A stretch of 64,000 bases of DNA from Caldilineaceae bacterium (GCA_965116395.1 OZ220684.1:2151447-2215446), one strand, 5' to 3'. Counted from the first letter of the stretch, positions 29,427-38,758 are shown. Made by a program: numbers and translations. The notes: generated by a model from the sequence alone, not told the origin.

Positions 29427-30638
29427 ATGTTTGTGCGAAGCGCGGCCGCCGCCGCGTTGGAACGGAAAAAGGAGCTGTTCTCCGTATACGAACGTGAGCG
29501 GTGGGAAGAGCAGAAGCGTGTGCAGGGATGGCTGCAGGAGTTGCAGGCTGTATCCGCCGCGTCCCTGAACCGCCGCCTCGACGACATCGACGACGCCTGG
29601 CCCGGCGCACTGCCCACGGAAGAGTACGACCGCGCGGATGGAATGTGCATCCCTTTGGGCGTGAAATGGCAGAACCGTGAAAAGGCCAATCAATGGGCAC
29701 TGGACGCGCTCGACGGCCGGCCCGCGCTGGCTGTCGACGGCAGCCAGATCATACCAACCACCGACTACTCTCCCCCGGTGGGCGCGGTGCAGATCGGCTG
29801 GTTCTTCAATGACCGCCGCCCGGCCGCGGATGGCGACGCCGCCGGGCGCTACGAAAAAGATATCGACTTTGAGGTACTGGCCCCGGACGAGCTGCTCGAC
29901 GCCGGCGGCGACGATAGCGTCTTTCCCAACTGGCGTGTGAACCAGGAGCGCTTCATTCTCGAGTGCGCCAAACTGTGTGAGTTCATGGAGCGCTGCGCGC
30001 AACGGCCGTTTGCCCGCAGGCCGGTCTGTTTCTTGGACGGCTCGCTGATTATCTCCTTTGCCGGCCAGCTGCGCGCCGGCCGAGAACACGGCTATATCCA
30101 GGCTGTGCAGGAGCTGCTGGACTGCTCCGAGCGCACGCAGACGCCTCTGGTCGGTTTTGTGGACAATACCTACAGCCGCGACATCGTCACCCTGCTGGCG
30201 ACGCTGCACGGCTTGCCGGCGCCGGCGCACATCAACGACGCTTCTCTACTGGCGGCAAACATGCCCGACTGGGGCGATCGCAGTCCGTTCTGGGTATGCG
30301 CACGCCCGGACCGTCTCAGCACAGAAGGCCGCGCCGACTTCTACAAACAGGTCTGTTTCTGCCTGGCGCGGCTCAGCATGGAAAACGCGCCGGCCCGGCT
30401 GGAGATGCCGCGCTGGCTGCTGGAATCCGGCCGCGCCGACGAAATCGTCTCCCTCGTTCTGGCCGAGGCCGTTGTCGGCAGTGGCTATCCCTACGTGCTG
30501 GAGACGGCAGACGTCACCGCGGTCATCCAGCAGCAGGACCGCCAGCGCTTCTACCGGCTCTTCCAGGAGTTTCTGGAGGAGCAAGGCATGGCCATGACCG
30601 TCACGCGCAAGCAGCGCAGCAAGCAGCTGCGGCGGTGA
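29427..30638 (+). CDS. NurA-domain nuclease-like protein (no HerA partner in the window)
   Basis: LAVDGSQI (catalytic DGS), FLDGSLI and C-terminal GSGYPYVLETADVTAVI follow the NurA domain pattern. Confidence 0.55.
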   Translation: MFVRSAAAAALERKKELFSVYERERWEEQKRVQGWLQELQAVSAASLNRRLDDIDDAWPGALPTEEYDRADGMCIPLGVKWQNREKANQWALDALDGRPALAVDGSQIIPTTDYSPPVGAVQIGWFFNDRRPAADGDAAGRYEKDIDFEVLAPDELLDAGGDDSVFPNWRVNQERFILECAKLCEFMERCAQRPFARRPVCFLDGSLIISFAGQLRAGREHGYIQAVQELLDCSERTQTPLVGFVDNTYSRDIVTLLATLHGLPAPAHINDASLLAANMPDWGDRSPFWVCARPDRLSTEGRADFYKQVCFCLARLSMENAPARLEMPRWLLESGRADEIVSLVLAEAVVGSGYPYVLETADVTAVIQQQDRQRFYRLFQEFLEEQGMAMTVTRKQRSKQLRR

Positions 30639-30644
30639 TAACGG

Positions 30645-30670
30645 CAGTGGTTAGTGGCCAGTGGTCAGTG
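30645..30670. repeat. heptamer tract, family 2 (GTGGTTA/GTGGTCA-like)
   Basis: CAGTGGTTAGTGGCCAGTGGTCAGTG, starting 7 nt after the NurA-like stop. Confidence 0.65.
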
Positions 30671-31269: not shown

Positions 31270-31281
31270 AGGGGAAGAGAG

Positions 31282-31566
31282 ATGAGATGGAAACTTAAAT
31301 GTCTAGTCGAGAAGGAAGATGATTGGTATGTTTCCTATTGTGAGGAATTGGGAATTGCAAGCCAAGGGGAAACCGTAATTGAGGCAAAGAGGAATTTGGA
31401 AGAAGCAATTGAGATGTTCTTAGAGGACGCTTCGCAGAACGAGATTCTGAGTCTCCTTGCCTCTCTTAAGCCGGGGTCTCCTTTCGGAATTCAGCATCAC
31501 TTGGAGGTTTCGGTTGTGCATCATCAGGAGAGAAAGGGCACACAATGGGAGATAATTGTAGCCTAA
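31282..31566 (+). CDS. HicB/UPF0150-like antitoxin-fold protein
   Basis: LVEKEDDWYVSYCEELGIASQGETVIEAKRNLEEAIEMFLED matches the HicB N-terminal fold pattern. AT-rich relative to ogt, which ends 13 nt upstream. Confidence 0.6.
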   Translation: MRWKLKCLVEKEDDWYVSYCEELGIASQGETVIEAKRNLEEAIEMFLEDASQNEILSLLASLKPGSPFGIQHHLEVSVVHHQERKGTQWEIIVA

Positions 31567-31683
31567 ATTGAGACAGCTGTCCGGCTGTGAAGTCCGCAGG
31601 ACAAGGAATGCTCGATTTTGGAGTAAGAACCGTCTTCGTCCCCATAAAGTCGTTTGCTAGGCCCTACCCTAGTCCAACCTCGT

Positions 31684-34600
31684 TTAACTACCCGTTATCT
31701 GCTGATCTAGAATATCAGTGATCCATAGGAGTTTGAATGCTTCCGCTTTGACTTGCAGTTCTTCTAGTCGCCTCGACCATGCTCCCAATTCGACCACGGT
31801 CAGCTTACTTGTATCGTTAAAGTCCTCCGTAGGTCGAAATTGCTTGCCAATCTCAACGAGGTGTTTCATAGCTTCTCCAAGGAAAGGGCGGTCCAAGTAA
31901 TATTCAAGATCTTCATGATACTTTGTGAGTTCCGTAAATTCGTCGCACACCCGTTGTAGATTCTTATCAAGATTCTCACTTTGGACGCGCAGAAAGCCGT
32001 CAATGACGGTAGAGTCACAGACGGATTCATCGGGAAAGCGGGAAAGGTCTCCAGCGCTCAGAGAAAGAAGAGACAACAATGCAAAGTTTTCCGTGAAACG
32101 AATAGCAGGTTCAAATTGCTCACGATCCCAAATAGCAACTTTCAGGTTGGCCCAATCTTCGTCCGAAATTTCTCTGCTAAATTGACGCAAATGCCTCCAT
32201 GCGTTACCCGATCTCAATTCACTCGAAGGGACAACGAAAATAAACTTCGACAATGCCTTGCCACGGAACAGCGGAATAACTGCGAAACGCTCCAACGAGA
32301 ATAGTGTTGCGTAGTACCGCAAACTCGTAGTGCTTTCAGTGTGTAACGCTTCTCTCAGTGCTTCAAGAGTGGCCTCAACCGCCTTCCAATATGACATTGG
32401 ATGGTCCGCATTTACCAAGATAGTGGTGATGTGCTCCCCTTCGAGCTTCAGATCATCTGTGGCGACATTTGCTGAGTAATGCTCCTTCTTCACTGCCTTA
32501 AGCTTTTCCCTAATTTCCTTTCTCATTTCCTCAAGAGCATTGTGGCGCTCCTTGACAAATGCCTTTACCGCTCCCTTCCTAACCCTCTTCGGATGAAAGG
32601 CAAATTGGTACCACATTGGCCATAATTCCCTAATCAGTTTTTGTTCTCTACTTTCCAATCTGCTATGGTCGTAGTCGGACAAGATCCGATCGAACCGATT
32701 GCGAAACTCGACTTGCAGATGGGCTAGTGCATCTAACGCGACAAGCAGGTTGAAAGTTGCCAAGTCTTCTTTGCCTGTCTCAATGCCTTGCTCCTGGGCA
32801 ATTTGTAAGAGAGTGTCACGCATGTCTGCGTCTGCTCGTCCTAAACTAGAGTTTAACACTGCGACATGCAGTCCTTGAGTCATAAAATTCGACAAATGTC
32901 TCAAAAATCGGTGGAGTATATCAATGTACGATTTGTTTTTCGTGATAGCAGGAAACTGCAGGTAGAGTCCTCCAACGGAGAGGTTGTTTGGATCGTTAGT
33001 AGAATCCTGGACCAAACCTTCGCTCACAAATCCCCATTCATCAACCGCGCTTTGTGGTAGAGGAGGTCGGGAATCGGCGAGGTGCTTGCATTTTTCGAGA
33101 GTCGCATTGTCGAACTGCAGGCCTACTCGTTTCGTGACTTGTCTCTTGCGAAAATAAGCGTCTAGTGCCCGCTGTAGCTGGCCCAACCAAGTGTGCAACT
33201 CCTGTCTAAGTTCTAATATTTCCCGTGCATGCAATTCCCAGTTGTTTGGCCTATAGGGATAGTCGCCTAGCGAACGGAAATGTGCGTTGATTCTTTGTGC
33301 CCAAGGTGGATAGAAATTACTGGAGTCGATAGTTTTTTCTGAATCGTCATACTCTGGCGCCAGAATTCCCAGTCTATGACCATAGCCATGGCTTCCGTAC
33401 TTCTGATGGGTCGGCAAGAGCTTTCTCAGAAGGTCAACACGATACATGGTTTCTTCGTGCAACGAGCGTGAAATTGATTTAGCCTCGTCTTGTACTCCTG
33501 GATCTATCAGGTATACAAAATCAGGGATAAAGTGCGCTCGTAAGGTCGCCCCATCGTCCTCCAATGAAAAACTATTCGTTTCAAGTTTGAAACGTGATTC
33601 AATTTGATGTTGGTATTCACTCACGATCGTTTCGAGTCTTTCTTTATCCGCGATGTGCAACGCATATATTAAATTCGCCAAAGTGTCGAGCGGAGTTTTC
33701 TCGACGACTTCTCCAATTTCTATGTGCTTACACAACAGGGGAGTCAACTGCTGAATTTGAAGATGACTTGACCAAAATAAGACCTGTGCAAGACCTGCAA
33801 AGTCATGTTGTTTAGAAGGTACCATGTTAGTCGGGGCTATATTCCGCAGCCAAGTTCTGGCAGGAACAAATGCCCCTTCTTTGGGCGTTTGCCTCTCCCT
33901 TACGGAGGCAACATACTCCAAGAGTCGGCCCTTTCCACCAAAATCTGATAAATTGTCCCAAATATCGGTTATGTCCTCCTTAGCAATCCCTGTCAGATCA
34001 GAATCCAATAGGAGATACCACGCAGGGCCTCGTTCTTGGTATACTTGATCTATTAATTCCCTATTTGCCTCTGTATAGTCACGCACTCCAAGCCAAAGTA
34101 GTGCCCGCAAAACGCCCGCCACACCTCCCCATGACTTTGGTTGGAATTTATTAAGCTGCTCTATGACGGATGATGCTTCTTCTCTCCGGCGCGAGAAGAC
34201 ATGCAGCAGAAAAATCTCCAAGTCGGATTCCACTAACAGTTGCATACATTCCTTCGCAATTGATTCCCAACTGTAAAGCGTAGAGTCTAAAAGGCTCTCC
34301 AGCATTATGCTAGACCTGACGGAATGTAAACCGGAAATAGTTGAATATTCTGCGTCAACGCGGATCAGATACTCTTTGGCAAAAGTTTCTATAGTTAGAG
34401 GAAGTGCATTTAGGTTAAGATGGCGATGAACAGAACTCAAGTCGAGTTTGGCCTCATATGCTGAGGCCGTAGCCACGAGCCTAAGCAAATGCAGTTCGTC
34501 TGCCTGTAGGTCTCCACGGTTCAGTCGTTCCTGTAGACTTCGAATCTGACTTTCAATGCGGGCTTTTAGTGTTTTTCGCTGTGTTAGGAAGTAAACAAAC

Positions 34601-35877
34601 TCCAATAAAGGACCCCGTCCTCCAAATCCTGCCCAGGCCTCATCAAACGTAAGAAAATTCGGATTTTGCTCTAGGAACTGCGCTGATAGACTTTCGGCTT
34701 CTTTTCTGTCAAAATCGAGTTCCATCTCTTCAAAAAGGAAATGTGCCGCGTAGCCGGTAGCTCGCCGCCAATCTTCTTCGCGTACGGTCACCAAAATCTG
34801 AAGCTTTGGTAGGACTGCAAGAGTACGAACGAGGTTTGGCCAGTCCTGGTCACTAGGAGAAACATCTACATAGACAATACATGGGAGATCAATTGCTTTG
34901 GCGTGTCCTGACAACGCGTTCGCGACGTTCTGGAGTTGCCGCGTATTCTCGATTCGACGGGAGTCCACGAAGAAACGCCATACGTTTGGTGTGTAGTCGT
35001 GGAGGTACCGGAATGCAAGAGTACTCTTTCCTTGCCCTGATGCACCATGCACGATTACTACGTCGTTGGCTTCGAATTTCTTCTGGATCTCCGTCAGTTT
35101 TTCGCTACGAATCATATCTAAATCGGCCAGAATGTGATCATACCGCGCATCCACCCCCCGATAGTACTCATTTGTGAGGCGGTCAGTATCGATTTCATCT
35201 GGGCGCCGTGTATCGATTAGGGGATGAATGGTGTTGAACCATTCGTCATGATACGCGGATCGCTCCTGCAAATACCGACCTACAGACGATAGCTTTTCAA
35301 TTACAGATGAGTATTCGATGCGTTCACTCTGCTCCGAAGCACGAAATACCCAGAACATGAGTAACTCGAAGGCATATAGAAGATCACCTCCTGCTAGCGA
35401 GTCCCGAAGAAAATCAGAAACTCTGGCCTCGAGGTTGGACTCATCTGCCATCGAGAATTTTATGCCAAATAGCTCTTCTATTTCTCCAGAATTGTAGCCA
35501 TATTCTCTGAGCTTCTCTCGCACATGCTGTCTTTCGGGACCCTCCTGGGTCCACGCTTTTTCTATCTCGGGTCCGATTGGTCCAAAGCTTACGATTCTGA
35601 TCGTAGAATCGGGAAAGTTCCTGCGATTGCGAAGAGAACGATCGAAGAAGGAATCGTGCAACTGTGAGGCAAAATCTGATAGAGTCACGTTGTCACTATA
35701 GGCTTTTACCTGCACGGTTTCCAGAAGTTGACCATCGGGTGCATGTATGTCCAAATCCTCTTTACCTTCAGGCAGATACCAAAGTTCTTGATGTTCAACA
35801 TCAAGAAGTCGTGAGAGGATATATAGGGTTTGAAGTCTATACCCCCGTAAAGCCGCTGCCGCTCCATCCCTGGGCAT
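31684..35877 (-). CDS. Avs-like STAND NTPase with N-terminal Cap4/DUF4297-type PD-(D/E)xK nuclease and about 900-aa helical C-terminal region
   Basis: The start was moved to ATG MPRDGAAAALRGYRLQTLYILSRLL. EGKEDLDIH...ETVQVKA is the E-x-D...Q-x-K layout. Walker A is VIVHGASGQGKST, Walker B-like is CIVYVDVS, followed by LQILVTVREEDW. The gene is markedly AT-richer than its flanks. Confidence 0.75.
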   Translation of the reverse strand: MPRDGAAAALRGYRLQTLYILSRLLDVEHQELWYLPEGKEDLDIHAPDGQLLETVQVKAYSDNVTLSDFASQLHDSFFDRSLRNRRNFPDSTIRIVSFGPIGPEIEKAWTQEGPERQHVREKLREYGYNSGEIEELFGIKFSMADESNLEARVSDFLRDSLAGGDLLYAFELLMFWVFRASEQSERIEYSSVIEKLSSVGRYLQERSAYHDEWFNTIHPLIDTRRPDEIDTDRLTNEYYRGVDARYDHILADLDMIRSEKLTEIQKKFEANDVVIVHGASGQGKSTLAFRYLHDYTPNVWRFFVDSRRIENTRQLQNVANALSGHAKAIDLPCIVYVDVSPSDQDWPNLVRTLAVLPKLQILVTVREEDWRRATGYAAHFLFEEMELDFDRKEAESLSAQFLEQNPNFLTFDEAWAGFGGRGPLLEFVYFLTQRKTLKARIESQIRSLQERLNRGDLQADELHLLRLVATASAYEAKLDLSSVHRHLNLNALPLTIETFAKEYLIRVDAEYSTISGLHSVRSSIMLESLLDSTLYSWESIAKECMQLLVESDLEIFLLHVFSRRREEASSVIEQLNKFQPKSWGGVAGVLRALLWLGVRDYTEANRELIDQVYQERGPAWYLLLDSDLTGIAKEDITDIWDNLSDFGGKGRLLEYVASVRERQTPKEGAFVPARTWLRNIAPTNMVPSKQHDFAGLAQVLFWSSHLQIQQLTPLLCKHIEIGEVVEKTPLDTLANLIYALHIADKERLETIVSEYQHQIESRFKLETNSFSLEDDGATLRAHFIPDFVYLIDPGVQDEAKSISRSLHEETMYRVDLLRKLLPTHQKYGSHGYGHRLGILAPEYDDSEKTIDSSNFYPPWAQRINAHFRSLGDYPYRPNNWELHAREILELRQELHTWLGQLQRALDAYFRKRQVTKRVGLQFDNATLEKCKHLADSRPPLPQSAVDEWGFVSEGLVQDSTNDPNNLSVGGLYLQFPAITKNKSYIDILHRFLRHLSNFMTQGLHVAVLNSSLGRADADMRDTLLQIAQEQGIETGKEDLATFNLLVALDALAHLQVEFRNRFDRILSDYDHSRLESREQKLIRELWPMWYQFAFHPKRVRKGAVKAFVKERHNALEEMRKEIREKLKAVKKEHYSANVATDDLKLEGEHITTILVNADHPMSYWKAVEATLEALREALHTESTTSLRYYATLFSLERFAVIPLFRGKALSKFIFVVPSSELRSGNAWRHLRQFSREISDEDWANLKVAIWDREQFEPAIRFTENFALLSLLSLSAGDLSRFPDESVCDSTVIDGFLRVQSENLDKNLQRVCDEFTELTKYHEDLEYYLDRPFLGEAMKHLVEIGKQFRPTEDFNDTSKLTVVELGAWSRRLEELQVKAEAFKLLWITDILDQQITGS

Positions 35878-36030
35878 CACTATTTCCCATAAGTGTATCG
35901 ATTCAAGCACGCAAAAAACTTGTAGAAAAATGTATCGGGGCCAAAAACTGGGCAACGAGCCAAGGGTTATAATGGAGCAGACCGCCAAGCAAGTGGAGAA
36001 GCAGTTAAATTGTCTCGAAACGGCGACGAC

Positions 36031-36318
36031 TTATAGCGGCATCGCCGACGATTCTAACGCCTCGTCCACTTCAGTGCCTTCCCTCACCCACGCCCCAGCC
36101 ACCGCCTCAACCTGCCCCGCACCCCAGCCCCCATTCGCGACCACCAGCCGATACTGCTTCGTAATCGTCTCCCCAGCCCCGAACTCATACACCTCATCGA
36201 ACATGAAGGCGAAGCTGGCGCATGACGTACGGCGTCTGGCGCACGAACCACTTGTTGGGATAACGCAGATTGGCCGGATGGCCCAGAAAGGCCAGCGTTG
36301 ACGTGCGGCCGTTGCTGT
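36031..36318 (-). pseudogene. 5'-truncated, frameshifted copy of the 3' end of a DUF6807/PmoA-family gene
   Basis: It encodes ...STLAFLGHPANLRYPNKWFVRQTPY, then a 1-nt shift, then CASFAFMFDEVYEFGAGETITKQYRLVVANGGWGAGQVEA. This parallels the C-terminus of the intact gene at 37758..38699. DNA similarity is roughly 85% by eye. Confidence 0.7.
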
Positions 36319-36365
36319 CGTCGAGGGTCTAGGTAGGGTGCAGGGGGAACTAGCCTTCGCACTAC

Positions 36366-36788
36366 CTACGGACGCAAAATGTCCATGTACTTTCGCCGCT
36401 GATCCTCCATCCAATCGGTGAGCGAATCCCAGTTGTTCTTGTTGCGCGTCCCGCCTTCGGGTTCGCAAATCGTTTCGCACCAATGGTCCAGGCCCTTTTC
36501 GTTGGGTATGTAGTAGGTTATATCCTCGAACTTTTCCTGAAACTGTTCCCAGTACCGCCTGATGCGGCGTTCAACAGCCTTGGAAACTTCGTCATTTCCA
36601 CCCACGACGTAGGTGCCAACCCCGTCAGTCCCAAGATAATGTCTGATCGAGAGATCGGCCTCGTCGATCTTGTAACTGGGAGAGTGGTGCCTATAATCCT
36701 CTTGAAAACGTTGTGCATTCGGCGTCCTTGGATGCCTGTCCGCGTAATGTCTCCAGAAGGCTTGCCGGAAGCTGACTGTTTGGTCCAT
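36366..36788 (-). CDS. hypothetical protein, DUF4268-like
   Basis: 140-aa ORF 39 nt downstream of the MNT gene. FRQAFWRHYADRHP...NKNNWDSLTDWMEDQRRKYMDIL resembles the DUF4268 pattern. This assignment is from memory, not a search. Confidence 0.45.
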   Translation of the reverse strand: MDQTVSFRQAFWRHYADRHPRTPNAQRFQEDYRHHSPSYKIDEADLSIRHYLGTDGVGTYVVGGNDEVSKAVERRIRRYWEQFQEKFEDITYYIPNEKGLDHWCETICEPEGGTRNKNNWDSLTDWMEDQRRKYMDILRP

Positions 36789-36827
36789 CGTCTATGTCTC
36801 CTTCTCATCGCCTGTGAACTCTGTCCG

Positions 36828-37160
36828 CTACTTCTTAGCTACACGCCCTCCCGGACCGTCTGGCATCTTCTGCAGGACCACATAGCCTCTCGCAATAACT
36901 TCCTGAAAACTCTCGGAAATTCCGTGCCAGTCAAGCACGTCTACCAGAATAGGCAGGTCGGAATCCTCAAATGCTTCCTTCAGCCGCGCTAGCGTGTGCC
37001 GGTCCAATGCCGTAACGCCAACGATCGCGAGGTCGAGGTCGGAATAGTCCTTTGCAGAACATGTCACGCGCGAACCGAAAACGCGCACTTCGCAAGCCGG
37101 CACGTGTTCCGCCAGAATCTGCTTCACCGTTTTGAGGTGATTTGGGCTCAGGTCAATCAT
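36828..37160 (-). CDS. minimal nucleotidyltransferase (MNT) antitoxin
   Basis: VRVFGSRVTCSAKDYSDLDLAIV is the GSx10-12DxD pol-beta nucleotidyltransferase motif. Confidence 0.85.
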   Translation of the reverse strand: MIDLSPNHLKTVKQILAEHVPACEVRVFGSRVTCSAKDYSDLDLAIVGVTALDRHTLARLKEAFEDSDLPILVDVLDWHGISESFQEVIARGYVVLQKMPDGPGGRVAKK

Positions 37161-37575
37161 TGTGGGCTTCCAGCACCTTCAGCAGCTGCCGGGCGTCGTG
37201 CGTGAACCCTCTCACGGCTTCATAGACTTGCTGGGCCTTCTTGCGGTCATAGATATGGGAGGTTGTATTCCTTGCGTCGTGATGCCGCATCCAGCGATCG
37301 ACATCGGAGATAAGTCTATTCGCCGCGGAGAGGCGGTAGAGTTGACGCCTCGTCACACCGTCTGCGGTTTCGGGGCCGACGTTTGTATTCAGCCAGCGCG
37401 CCATCAGTTTCCAGGAGAGCTCGTAGGTTATCTCAAAGTGCTTTACGACGCCGGCGCGAATGCCGATGCGCTCGATTTCGCTCAACCGTCCCATGCGGGC
37501 ATCATCTTCGCTGGCTGTCAGCAGTTCATCCAGCGCTTCGATCGAGTCTCTCAGATTGTCCAGATGAAGAGGCAT
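37153..37575 (-). CDS. HEPN-domain toxin (HI0074-like nucleotidyltransferase substrate-binding protein family)
   Basis: R-x4-H motif RNTTSH near the C-terminus. 8-nt overlap with the MNT gene. The start was moved to ATG MPLHLDNL. Confidence 0.8.
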   Translation of the reverse strand: MPLHLDNLRDSIEALDELLTASEDDARMGRLSEIERIGIRAGVVKHFEITYELSWKLMARWLNTNVGPETADGVTRRQLYRLSAANRLISDVDRWMRHHDARNTTSHIYDRKKAQQVYEAVRGFTHDARQLLKVLEAHND

Positions 37576-37757
37576 GATCTGTCCATAGCAACTGAGTCGT
37601 TCCCGGACCAGATGAGCCTGGCCCCAAAAGTTGGACAACGAGCTAAGGCATATAGTGAAGCAATTTCCCCAGCAGGTGGACGGGAAGTTGAATTCTCAAT
37701 AAGCGGCGACGACACGTACCTGCATTGTTGAAGCGCATCCCGCCTCCAACTCCCACC

Positions 37758-38699
37758 TCATCCCCGCCACGCCTCTGCCGCGGCCTCCACCTGTCCCGCA
37801 TCCCATCCCCCATTCGCAACCACCAGCCGGTATCGCTGCGTAATCGTCTCCCCCGCCTCGAACGCATAAACCTCATCGAACATGAACGCAAAGCTGGCGC
37901 AGGCGTACGGCGTCTGGCGCACGAACCACTTGTTGGGATAGCGCAGGTTGGCGGGATGGTCCAGAAAGGCCAGCGTTGACGCATTGCCGTTGCCGTCGTG
38001 GCGGCCCGTGTAGGCCAGCCAAGGTGCCTGCTCGCCCATCGCCTCCGCGCCTTCGTGCCCTGCCGCGGTGATGACCTCGCCGTTGTCGAACGAGCGCGGC
38101 CCCCGCCAGAACAACCCGCCATAACCGGCCAGCGGACGCCCTTCCGTCGTCGGCGAGCAGATGTGCAGCGTCTCGCCGCGCACATTGCGCAGGCTGGTCG
38201 TGAAGTCCAGCGTCCAGTAGCCGGCCTCCGCGTCGACCGTCTCCACCGCAATGCCCCGCGTCTCGTCGATCCAGTGCTCACCCGCCTGCGTGATCCACGA
38301 GAGCTTCTCCGTCGCCGCGAAGCGGTTGTCGTCCACCTCGATCGACTCCCAGCCGTCATGGCGCTGGCTGCCGTTGTTGGGCAGGTCGACATAGCCCTCG
38401 CCGTGGCGGTAGCTGCCCCCGCCCCAGAAGTTCTGGCCGTCCAGGTGGGCGATCGTCATCTGGATCCCCTTGTGCCACACATGGTCATGCGGGCGGTAGT
38501 TGGTGATCAGGTCGCCGGCCAGCGTGTTGACAGGGTGGAAAAACGGTTTGGGCGACTCGGACTGGGGCATGTCCGGATCATAGATATAGCGGAACAGCGT
38601 AACCGCCTCCCACTTCAATTCAAGCGAAGCAAATCCGGGCGTGCGGTGACTGTGCGGCGCGGTCTTTTCATTGCGTGTATGGGTAAGAGCGAGAGCCAT
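37758..38699 (-). CDS. DUF6807 (PmoA-annotated) family protein
   Basis: KPFFHPVNTLAGDLITNYRPHDHVWHKGI plus the C-terminal FAFMFDEVY...YRLVVANGGW pattern typical of this family. Confidence 0.7.
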   Translation of the reverse strand: MALALTHTRNEKTAPHSHRTPGFASLELKWEAVTLFRYIYDPDMPQSESPKPFFHPVNTLAGDLITNYRPHDHVWHKGIQMTIAHLDGQNFWGGGSYRHGEGYVDLPNNGSQRHDGWESIEVDDNRFAATEKLSWITQAGEHWIDETRGIAVETVDAEAGYWTLDFTTSLRNVRGETLHICSPTTEGRPLAGYGGLFWRGPRSFDNGEVITAAGHEGAEAMGEQAPWLAYTGRHDGNGNASTLAFLDHPANLRYPNKWFVRQTPYACASFAFMFDEVYAFEAGETITQRYRLVVANGGWDAGQVEAAAEAWRG

Positions 38700-38706
38700 G
38701 AGACCT

Positions 38707-38752
38707 CAGTGGATAGTGGTTAGTGGATAGTGGTTGGTGGCTGGCGGTTGGG
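38707..38752. repeat. heptamer tract, family 2
   Basis: CAGTGGATAGTGGTTAGTGGATAGTGGTTGGTGGCTGGCGGTTGG: six to seven imperfect 7-nt units with TAG every 7 nt. Confidence 0.75.
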
Positions 38753-38758
38753 TCCAAA

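Follow-up and report, generated by a model that had tools for sequence, protein, structure and literature searches.

A single-gene Avs-like STAND protein with a predicted Cap4-type nuclease head and a presumed sensor particular to its family

The STAND gene and its three-part product

We analyzed a 64,000-nucleotide stretch of DNA from a Caldilineaceae bacterium (GCA_965116395.1 OZ220684.1:2151447-2215446), referred to here as the window, in which the minus strand carries a complete gene for a STAND protein at 31684..35877 (1397 amino acids plus the stop codon). The coding sequence is supported by the list of open reading frames (ORFs), by full-length homologs and by the ratio of nonsynonymous to synonymous substitution rates (dN/dS). 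The minus-strand ORF is open throughout 31684..35988 if a TTG start is allowed, while the ATG at 35877 gives a product of 1397 residues, which matches the length of the closest homologs. Since hundreds of full-length homologs of approximately 1400 amino acids were found at E = 0, a chance origin of a 1397-codon ORF can be dismissed. A first-pass annotation of this DNA had divided the product into three parts, namely an N-terminal PD-(D/E)xK nuclease, a central P-loop NTPase of the STAND type and a long C-terminal region that it could not assign. Our data support all three parts, and the motifs quoted in that annotation are all found in the translation and, across 113 aligned full-length homologs, show no or almost no variation. 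All of the catalytic and nucleotide-binding residues are intact in the window copy. Composition profiles place the gene, together with a 94-amino-acid ORF, within a low-GC block (approximately 31270..36000, no strand) that has sharp borders and a GC fraction of 0.42-0.53 along its length (46-48% for the block as a whole), compared to 0.60-0.67 (approximately 0.61) on either side; this agrees with the earlier description of the gene and its adjacent ORF as AT-richer than the flanking DNA. Scanning the surroundings of the gene for promoters and terminators gave counts at chance level.

Residues 1-230 (35188..35877, minus strand) form the head of the protein, which on the evidence of PADLOC LmuA profiles, Pfam at the family level, conserved motifs and a structural model is a predicted Cap4/DUF4297-type PD-(D/E)xK nuclease. 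The head contains the motifs G12-Y13-x-x-Q16, E37-G-x-E40-D41 and E53-x-x-Q56-V-K58, and each of G12, Y13, Q16, E37, E40, D41, E53, Q56, and K58 either never varies or has a conservation above 90% in the 113-homolog alignment. The predicted catalytic residues among them are D41, E53, Q56, and K58. Amino acids 1-269 of the window protein match the PADLOC LmuA model PDLC03848 (E 1.9e-11), and 20 of 34 diverse family members match PADLOC LmuA as well, with a best E of 8e-15. The Pfam Cap4_nuclease profile PF14130 is matched by 11 of these 34 members (best E 7.8e-6), and the window protein itself gave no PF14130 match at E <= 0.01. When the family profile was run against PDB sequences, the solved Lamassu LmuA (9ux7) was weakly matched with an E of 0.08. 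The AlphaFold model of residues 1-620 has a predicted local distance difference test score (pLDDT) of 89.2 and shows within the head a helix at 6-24, strands at 33-36, 42-45, and 51-58, a helix at 77-87 and a strand at 92-97. This alpha-beta-beta-beta-alpha-beta order is that of the PD-(D/E)xK core, with D41 just before or at the start of strand 2 and E53, Q56, and K58 on strand 3. Profile matches (LmuA, and PF14130 at the family level) and core order in the model therefore both place the head with the Cap4/DUF4297 nucleases.

The predicted nuclease is followed by a STAND module at residues 237-560 (34198..35169, minus strand) consisting of nucleotide-binding, helical and winged-helix domains, as identified by Pfam, the model and Foldseek. 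Walker A (G278-A-S-G-Q-G-K284-S) and Walker B (V-Y-V-D338) are invariant or nearly so and are flanked in the model by strands at 273-278 and 333-338. A T364-x-R366-E-E-D369 motif supplies the sensor-1 arginine, R366, which is invariant and ends the strand at 359-366, and H518 within the winged-helix motif G-L-H-x-x-R-S is likewise invariant. The 113-homolog alignment shows G281, G283, K284, D338, T364, R366, E367, E368, and D369 to be unchanged or conserved at more than 90%. The P-loop with Walker B, and the sensor-1 arginine with the helical domain and a winged-helix domain bearing a conserved histidine, are features of the STAND superfamily. Amino acids 237-374 of the window protein match Pfam nSTAND_NTPase5 with an E of 6.4e-7 and 29.7 bits, under the gathering score of 34, while across the diverse family members nSTAND_NTPase5 is found in 32 of 34 and nSTAND3 in 30 of 34; NB-ARC, NACHT, and AAA_16 give weaker matches in these members. 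A Foldseek search of the PDB with the model of residues 1-620 returned SeAvs3 bound to terminase as the best match (8dgc, E 3e-11), human SAMD9 as the second (9zjs, E 1.3e-9, TMq 0.40), Avs4 as the third (8dgf, E 2.8e-9) and EfAvs5 as the fourth (9jap, E 1.5e-7), with CED-4 and MalT ranking behind EfAvs5. Taken together, the conserved motifs, the profiles and the model make the assignment of the central module to the STAND NTPases secure. A literature search for nSTAND5 (PF25199) gave no relevant paper.

The remaining residues, 561-1397 (31687..34197, minus strand), make up a family-specific C-terminal module, delimited with AlphaFold, Foldseek and phmmer, that is presumed to be the sensor. 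Its AlphaFold model is confident (pLDDT 87.6, predicted template-modeling score 0.82) and describes one rigid body. The model begins with short helices in series (amino acids 565-766), continues with an alpha/beta insert at approximately 769-851 and bundles of helices 25-35 residues long, and ends with a second alpha/beta insert at approximately 1134-1236 and a long-helix bundle at the terminus. The first-pass annotation described this region as approximately 900 residues of helical sequence with no motif that could be named; the region is indeed unassignable, but the two alpha/beta inserts show that it is not purely helical. We found three conserved motifs, namely G831-Y-G-H834, which is invariant and carried by the first insert, D946-E-W-G-F950, and W1086..W1089..F1092..P1096, and a set of invariant polar or other residues (H782, H834, D844, K848, N864, R876, D946, E947, and E1078). 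No significant Foldseek match to the C-terminal model was found in the PDB (best E 0.19), although the library included 8dgc, 8dgf, 9jap, and 9zjs; the comparison with Avs3 and Avs4 sensors that had been proposed at the outset thus gave no match. The viral library BFVD likewise gave nothing significant (best E 0.059). Foldseek matches to importin, AP2 and the like were rejected as generic helical resemblance with a probability below 0.2, and Pfam, NCBIfam and the family profile against PDB sequences returned nothing for this module. In distant members, the C-terminal half retains 27-31% identity compared to 43-47% for the N-terminal half, which indicates that the C-terminus evolves faster. We presume a sensor role for the C-terminus because it is the fastest-evolving part of the protein, forms a rigid body and is reused with other heads, as described below.

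Distribution, head exchange and gene neighborhoods

When residues 620-1397 were used in an exhaustive phmmer search of 1.84 billion representatives, 515 proteins came up at E <= 0.001, these being representatives at 50% identity. Members of the family include WP_126390943.1, KHD11568.1, WP_293159296.1, MCY4082664.1, and MCL5237381.1. Among the best 150 of the 515, nearly all are approximately 1400 amino acids long with the module at approximately 620-1400, and the shorter ones are collinear fragments. The family is patchily distributed over more than 10 phyla and includes a few archaea. Its bacterial hosts include Chloroflexota, Cyanobacteria, Desulfobacterota (including cable bacteria), Myxococcota, Planctomycetota, Acidobacteriota, and Nitrospirota, and further copies occur in Thiomargarita, Parabeggiatoa, some Firmicutes, Deinococcota, and metagenome-assembled genomes (MAGs) of Methanosarcina and Thorarchaeota. 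Copies in Pseudanabaena and Deinococcus are plasmid-borne. No enterobacterial relatives of the STAND protein were seen in the homolog searches.

The Cap4 head could be aligned in 181 of 266 collected proteins. The exhaustive sensor search had suggested a fixed architecture with no swapping of heads, and this was rejected when tblastn against genome loci recovered both trypsin-headed and headless variants. In a Ca. Vecturithrix MAG (locus L014), a Trypsin_2 domain (E 8.8e-10) stands in place of the Cap4 head. Five filamentous-cyanobacterial loci have headless forms, in which the ORF for the STAND module and sensor begins at approximately residue 200 and comes after a small ORF of 131-146 amino acids (L027:8543-8944, L032:8549-8944, L042:8549-8944, and L044:8401-8841); the three small ORFs that were scanned, those of L027, L032, and L044, have no significant Pfam match. 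The headless forms adjoin genes for CHAT proteases or NB-ARC/Apaf-1-like proteins. Our data indicate that the sensor stays the same while the effector can be swapped, as in the tripartite architecture of Avs proteins. A more distant sister family on a Hymenobacter plasmid has kept the head.

Several individual loci deserve description. Within L014:4384-12523, a metallo-beta-lactamase gene lies directly upstream of the trypsin-headed gene, a NERD and double protein-kinase gene lies further upstream, and the STAND ORF contains one in-frame stop at approximately L014:11105. At L044, the STAND protein and the adjacent NB-ARC/APAF1_C protein (L044:4673-8314) have a common N-terminal peptide, MTQ..H.G.N.QTG.DNTNF.GG, that might be an adaptor-type tag. 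In Microcoleus vaginatus HSN003, approximately 1.2 kb of unrelated DNA (L042:10204-11434) interrupts the homolog at query residues 628-656 and the frame is shifted, so an insertion has probably broken up this copy. On the Marinovum algicola plasmid pMaD1 (L086:3347-9941), a distant relative of 1272 amino acids has only residues 238-912 in common with the family, and its first 218 residues do not align to the nuclease head. The gene for this relative runs into the beginning of another very large gene, with a XerD recombinase gene nearby, and the pair may be a two-gene variant of a wider nSTAND5 clade. Finally, an 8.7-kb "Bacteriophage sp." contig from human feces (MT836892.1, 5083-7815) encodes a 23%-identical relative over residues 5-950, the sole match among 50,697 phage records.

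We found no neighbor family that is conserved across approximately 80 loci. The STAND gene is stand-alone with no partner gene, in keeping with its initial reading as a single-gene system. Its neighbors differ from locus to locus, with defense genes a frequent presence. Type ISP/IIG restriction-modification enzymes adjoin the STAND gene in three Caldilineaceae-like loci, and in Pseudanabaena its neighbors are an SNF2-like helicase with Eco57I; other neighbors are three GajA/PtuA/AriA-like ATPases, four ResIII helicases, two SLFN/AlbA_2 proteins, and PIN toxins. The GC content of the STAND gene is below that of its flanks in 51 of 55 loci, with a median difference of -5.6 points. The family is horizontally transferred and defense-neighborhood in character.

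The defense association is clearer family-wide than in the window. The first-pass annotation placed the gene in a defense island next to HEPN/MNT and other toxin-antitoxin-like genes; the HEPN/MNT pair is real (HEPN 37153-37638 and MNT 36828-37160, both on the minus strand; NTase_sub_bind E 8e-31, TIGR01987 E 1.5e-20, and Polbeta E 4.5e-9), but the supposed island comes down to one such pair among housekeeping genes. The pair is not conserved beside STAND homologs at the approximately 80 loci and is context rather than part of the STAND system. The ORF of 94 amino acids (31282..31566, plus strand), which is convergent with the STAND gene, does lie inside the low-GC block, but its description as hicB-like is weak, since it is drawn from sub-threshold Pfam matches only (DUF7387 E 1.8e-4 and HicB_lk E 0.0099). 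Besides the window, this ORF adjoins a family gene only in the syntenic locus L001, where it has 71% amino acid identity, and we rejected it as a partner since it recurs in that locus alone and its divergence history differs from that of the STAND gene.

Comparison with L001 also bears on the history of the gene. The L001 ortholog is 95% identical in protein sequence with an overall dN/dS of 0.32 (head 0.51, NTPase 0.23, and sensor 0.32), which points to a gene under constraint. The nucleotide identity of the STAND block (approximately 31600-36000) is 95-98%, compared to approximately 85-93% (overall around 89%) for the backbone and approximately 86% for the 94-amino-acid ORF, and synonymous divergence (dS) is 0.07 for the STAND gene and 0.46 for that ORF. 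Because the identity of the STAND block exceeds that of both the backbone and the small ORF, these data suggest that the STAND cassette alone was recently transferred or recombined, being acquired or exchanged after the backbones had diverged.

Other features of the window lie on either side of the block. Approximately 240 nt of the 3' end of a DUF6807 gene (37758-38699, minus strand) are duplicated (36088-36326 and 37767-38004, 86-89% identity), and the two copies flank a cassette of HEPN, MNT and an ORF of 140 amino acids (ORF140; 36366-36788, minus strand). This duplication resembles the trace left by an insertion that hit the gene at its 3' end and carried a replacement end. ORF140 has a weak match to PADLOC PDC-S11 (E 4.6e-6) and no Pfam match, and the block that contains it (36273-36805) is missing from the otherwise syntenic L001. 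A NurA-domain protein of 403 amino acids (29427-30638, plus strand, E 5.9e-27) has no HerA partner nearby, and the corresponding region in L001 is broken into fragments of 86 and 219 amino acids. Tandem 14-nt units resembling AGTGGTTAGTGGAT occupy the intergenic region 38701-38753 between the DUF6807 gene and gatB, and a 25-mer related to the AGTGGTTAGTGGAT units lies at 30646-30670 between the NurA gene and ogt.

Proposed mechanism and competing explanations

The computational results above identify the three domains and show that the key residues are conserved, that the gene has no partner, that heads are swapped and that the family is mobile and found in defense-related surroundings. On this basis, we think it likely that the product is a receptor and effector in one, acting alone, of the antiviral STAND kind (Avs-like and NLR-like). 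At rest, it would be a nucleotide-bound, autoinhibited monomer. The C-terminal module would bind a ligand that comes from the invader, with a conserved phage protein as the likeliest candidate, and binding would open the STAND NTPase and lead to nucleotide exchange and oligomerization. Oligomerization would in turn join the Cap4-type nuclease domains into an active dimer or tetramer, and the active nuclease would cut double-stranded DNA with no sequence specificity, such that phage replication is stopped and the infected cell is lost (i.e., abortive infection). The defense role, the ligand-induced oligomerization, the degradation of double-stranded DNA and abortive infection are proposed by analogy with SeAvs3, SeAvs7, and DUF4297-HerA, whose Cap4/DUF4297 heads are promiscuous double-stranded DNA nucleases upon oligomerization (PMC13581612, PMC11291478).

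Several observations weigh against this interpretation. The PADLOC Avs and bNACHT models were unmatched at E <= 0.01 by the window protein and by 34 diverse members, and phmmer and the family profile run against PDB sequences returned P-loop noise and the weak LmuA match but no Avs protein; for this reason, the link to Avs is one of architecture and fold. The enrichment of defense neighbors consists of qualitative family counts with no statistic attached, and the context of the gene in the window is mostly housekeeping (gatB, ogt, and an M1 peptidase). The C-terminal module has no tetratricopeptide repeat (TPR) solenoid, unlike most characterized Avs sensors, and the invariant residues H834, D844, K848, D946, E947, and E1078 could mark a pocket for a small molecule or nucleic acid, or an autoinhibitory interface, instead of a protein-binding surface. 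A literature search found no experiments on any family member.

Our tentative suggestion, which we hold with distinctly less confidence than the overall mechanism, is that the C-terminal 840 residues might be an uncharacterized non-TPR recognition fold defining a new Avs family that is common in Chloroflexota, cyanobacteria, cable bacteria, myxobacteria, and some archaea, with a trigger that would be a phage component outside the reported Avs targets or a non-protein ligand. In a related explanation, the architecture is the same and the C-terminal module responds to a disturbed host factor, to a small molecule derived from a nucleotide, or to some nucleic-acid structure, with the nuclease again activated by oligomerization. 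The non-TPR nature of the sensor with its two alpha/beta sub-domains, its invariant polar clusters (H782, G831-Y-G-H834, D844, K848, N864, R876, D946-E-W-G, and E1078) and its lack of a structural match to the Avs3, Avs4, Avs5, and SAMD9 sensors are in favor of such a ligand, and Lee et al. 2026 allow non-protein sensing by some STANDs, with host factors such as EF-Tu and DnaJ also possible. However, every Avs family whose trigger is reported in the literature consulted senses a phage protein via a large interface, a rigid module of 840 residues is big for a small-molecule pocket, and the conserved residues fit autoinhibitory contacts with the head and NTPase equally well, as in apo SeAvs7. 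We regard a ligand other than a phage protein as rather unlikely, although the invariant polar clusters make a non-protein ligand or the guarding of a host factor an alternative to be taken seriously.

We also asked whether the gene serves mainly a purpose other than phage defense, either as a regulated suicide or incompatibility nuclease in conflicts between mobile elements or in the programmed cell death of multicellular or filamentous bacteria. The family is enriched in lineages with filamentous or multicellular members (cyanobacteria, Chloroflexota, cable bacteria, myxobacteria, and Thiomargarita), some copies are carried by plasmids, conjugative ones among them, and the cyanobacterial forms adjoin the CHAT-protease and NB-ARC/Apaf-1-like genes that are known from apoptosis-like conflict systems (Kaur et al. 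2021). Against this, loci in other phyla have classical antiphage neighbors, including restriction-modification enzymes and Gabija/Septu/PARIS-like ATPases, and the characterized Cap4-STANDs in the literature consulted are all antiphage. Such a role and an antiphage role are compatible with each other, and we consider it improbable that the former is the main one. A multi-gene system, in which the protein would work with the 94-amino-acid ORF, HEPN/MNT or ORF140, or as a Lamassu-like effector in need of an SMC partner, would fit the LmuA matches of the head, the adjoining toxin-antitoxin-like genes and the position of the small ORF inside the same low-GC block, but it is highly improbable given that none of these genes recurs beside homologs, no LmuB/SMC-like gene is nearby, ORF140 is missing from L001 and the 94-amino-acid ORF diverged differently from the STAND gene.

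With the receptor-effector reading preferred, the STAND gene adds a family to a well-known class and is not a new kind of system; the concept is unchanged, as known Cap4-STAND systems have the same architecture and probably work in the same way. To our knowledge, nearly all Avs-type receptors characterized so far come from Enterobacteriaceae or other Proteobacteria. The hosts of the present family are mostly environmental bacteria, many of them filamentous, together with a few archaea, and little is known of their phages. No structure in the PDB or viral libraries is related to the family's sensor, so finding its trigger would widen the map of NLR-like recognition. Furthermore, a constant sensor that occurs with a Cap4 nuclease, with trypsin and a metallo-beta-lactamase, or with no head offers a clean case for effector exchange.

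Comparison with known systems

The first-pass annotation called the protein Avs-like. The architecture bears this out, but membership in Avs types 1-5 does not follow, as the PADLOC v2 profiles for these types gave no match. Among proteins of solved structure, the closest is SeAvs3 (Salmonella Avs type 3, 8dgc), which is likewise a single-gene system with a Cap4-type nuclease, a STAND NTPase and a large C-terminal sensor, and which gave the best Foldseek match to residues 1-620. Sequence similarity to SeAvs3 was not detectable by phmmer and the family profile against PDB sequences or by the PADLOC Avs models, and its terminase-binding sensor is unmatched by our C-terminal model. The two proteins also differ in length (1397 residues here compared to a chain of 2028 residues), and the NTPase of the present family is of the Pfam nSTAND5/nSTAND3 type. 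Since no enterobacterial relatives were seen, the protein is less likely to belong to the Avs families represented by E. coli, Salmonella, and Klebsiella proteins, but this argument does not extend to families represented only by non-enteric proteins, such as MvAvs13.

Lee et al. 2026 (PMC13581612) describe SeAvs7, a Cap4-STAND-TPR protein that recognizes major capsid protein together with EF-Tu. As in the present protein, its Cap4 head of approximately 225 residues is followed by the STAND module, and its sensor too is reused with several heads. The spacing of landmarks is alike, with K292, D358, R395, and H545 in SeAvs7 corresponding to K284, D338, R366, and H518 here (PMC13581612). The two are set apart, by description, in that the Avs7 sensor is a bilobed TPR structure whereas ours consists of long-helix bundles with alpha/beta inserts. 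None of the Avs7 structures 9N00, 9N01, and 9YIX was among the Foldseek matches (library to April 2026), and the PDB sequence search matched no Avs7 sequence.

The NTPase is also related to that of Avs5 and SAMD9-like proteins (EfAvs5, 9jap; SAMD9, 9zjs), since nSTAND3, which 30 of the 34 members match, is the Avs5 NTPase family. These proteins have SIR2, PNP, or AlbA_2 effectors compared to the Cap4-type nuclease here, and their sensors are unmatched. Avs6 and Avs9, considered since SAMD9 scored well, were rejected because they have PNP and AlbA_2 heads and SAMD9-like sensors. By sequence, the head is closest to the PADLOC LmuA models (E down to 8e-15), with the weak match to solved LmuA given above. 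The heads of Lamassu LmuA and DUF4297-HerA are double-stranded DNA nucleases activated by oligomerization (PMC11291478). Lamassu and DUF4297-HerA need LmuB/LmuC SMC-like proteins or HerA, whereas the NTPase and sensor are fused here in one polypeptide; we found no SMC-like neighbor in the window, which together with the lack of a conserved neighbor across the loci sets the family outside Lamassu.

Head exchange provides a further point of comparison. Avs2-trypsin-MBL (bioRxiv 10.64898/2026.08.25.746987) has the same effector pairing as the L014 locus, where Trypsin_2 occurs with a metallo-beta-lactamase. Its sensor is a terminase sensor, whereas L014 carries the sensor of the present family and the window gene has the nuclease head. 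The census of Lee et al. 2026 comprises 589 STAND clades, 684 sensor clusters, and Avs families 7-24 (PMC13581612), and its 589 clades probably already contain the present family, unnamed.

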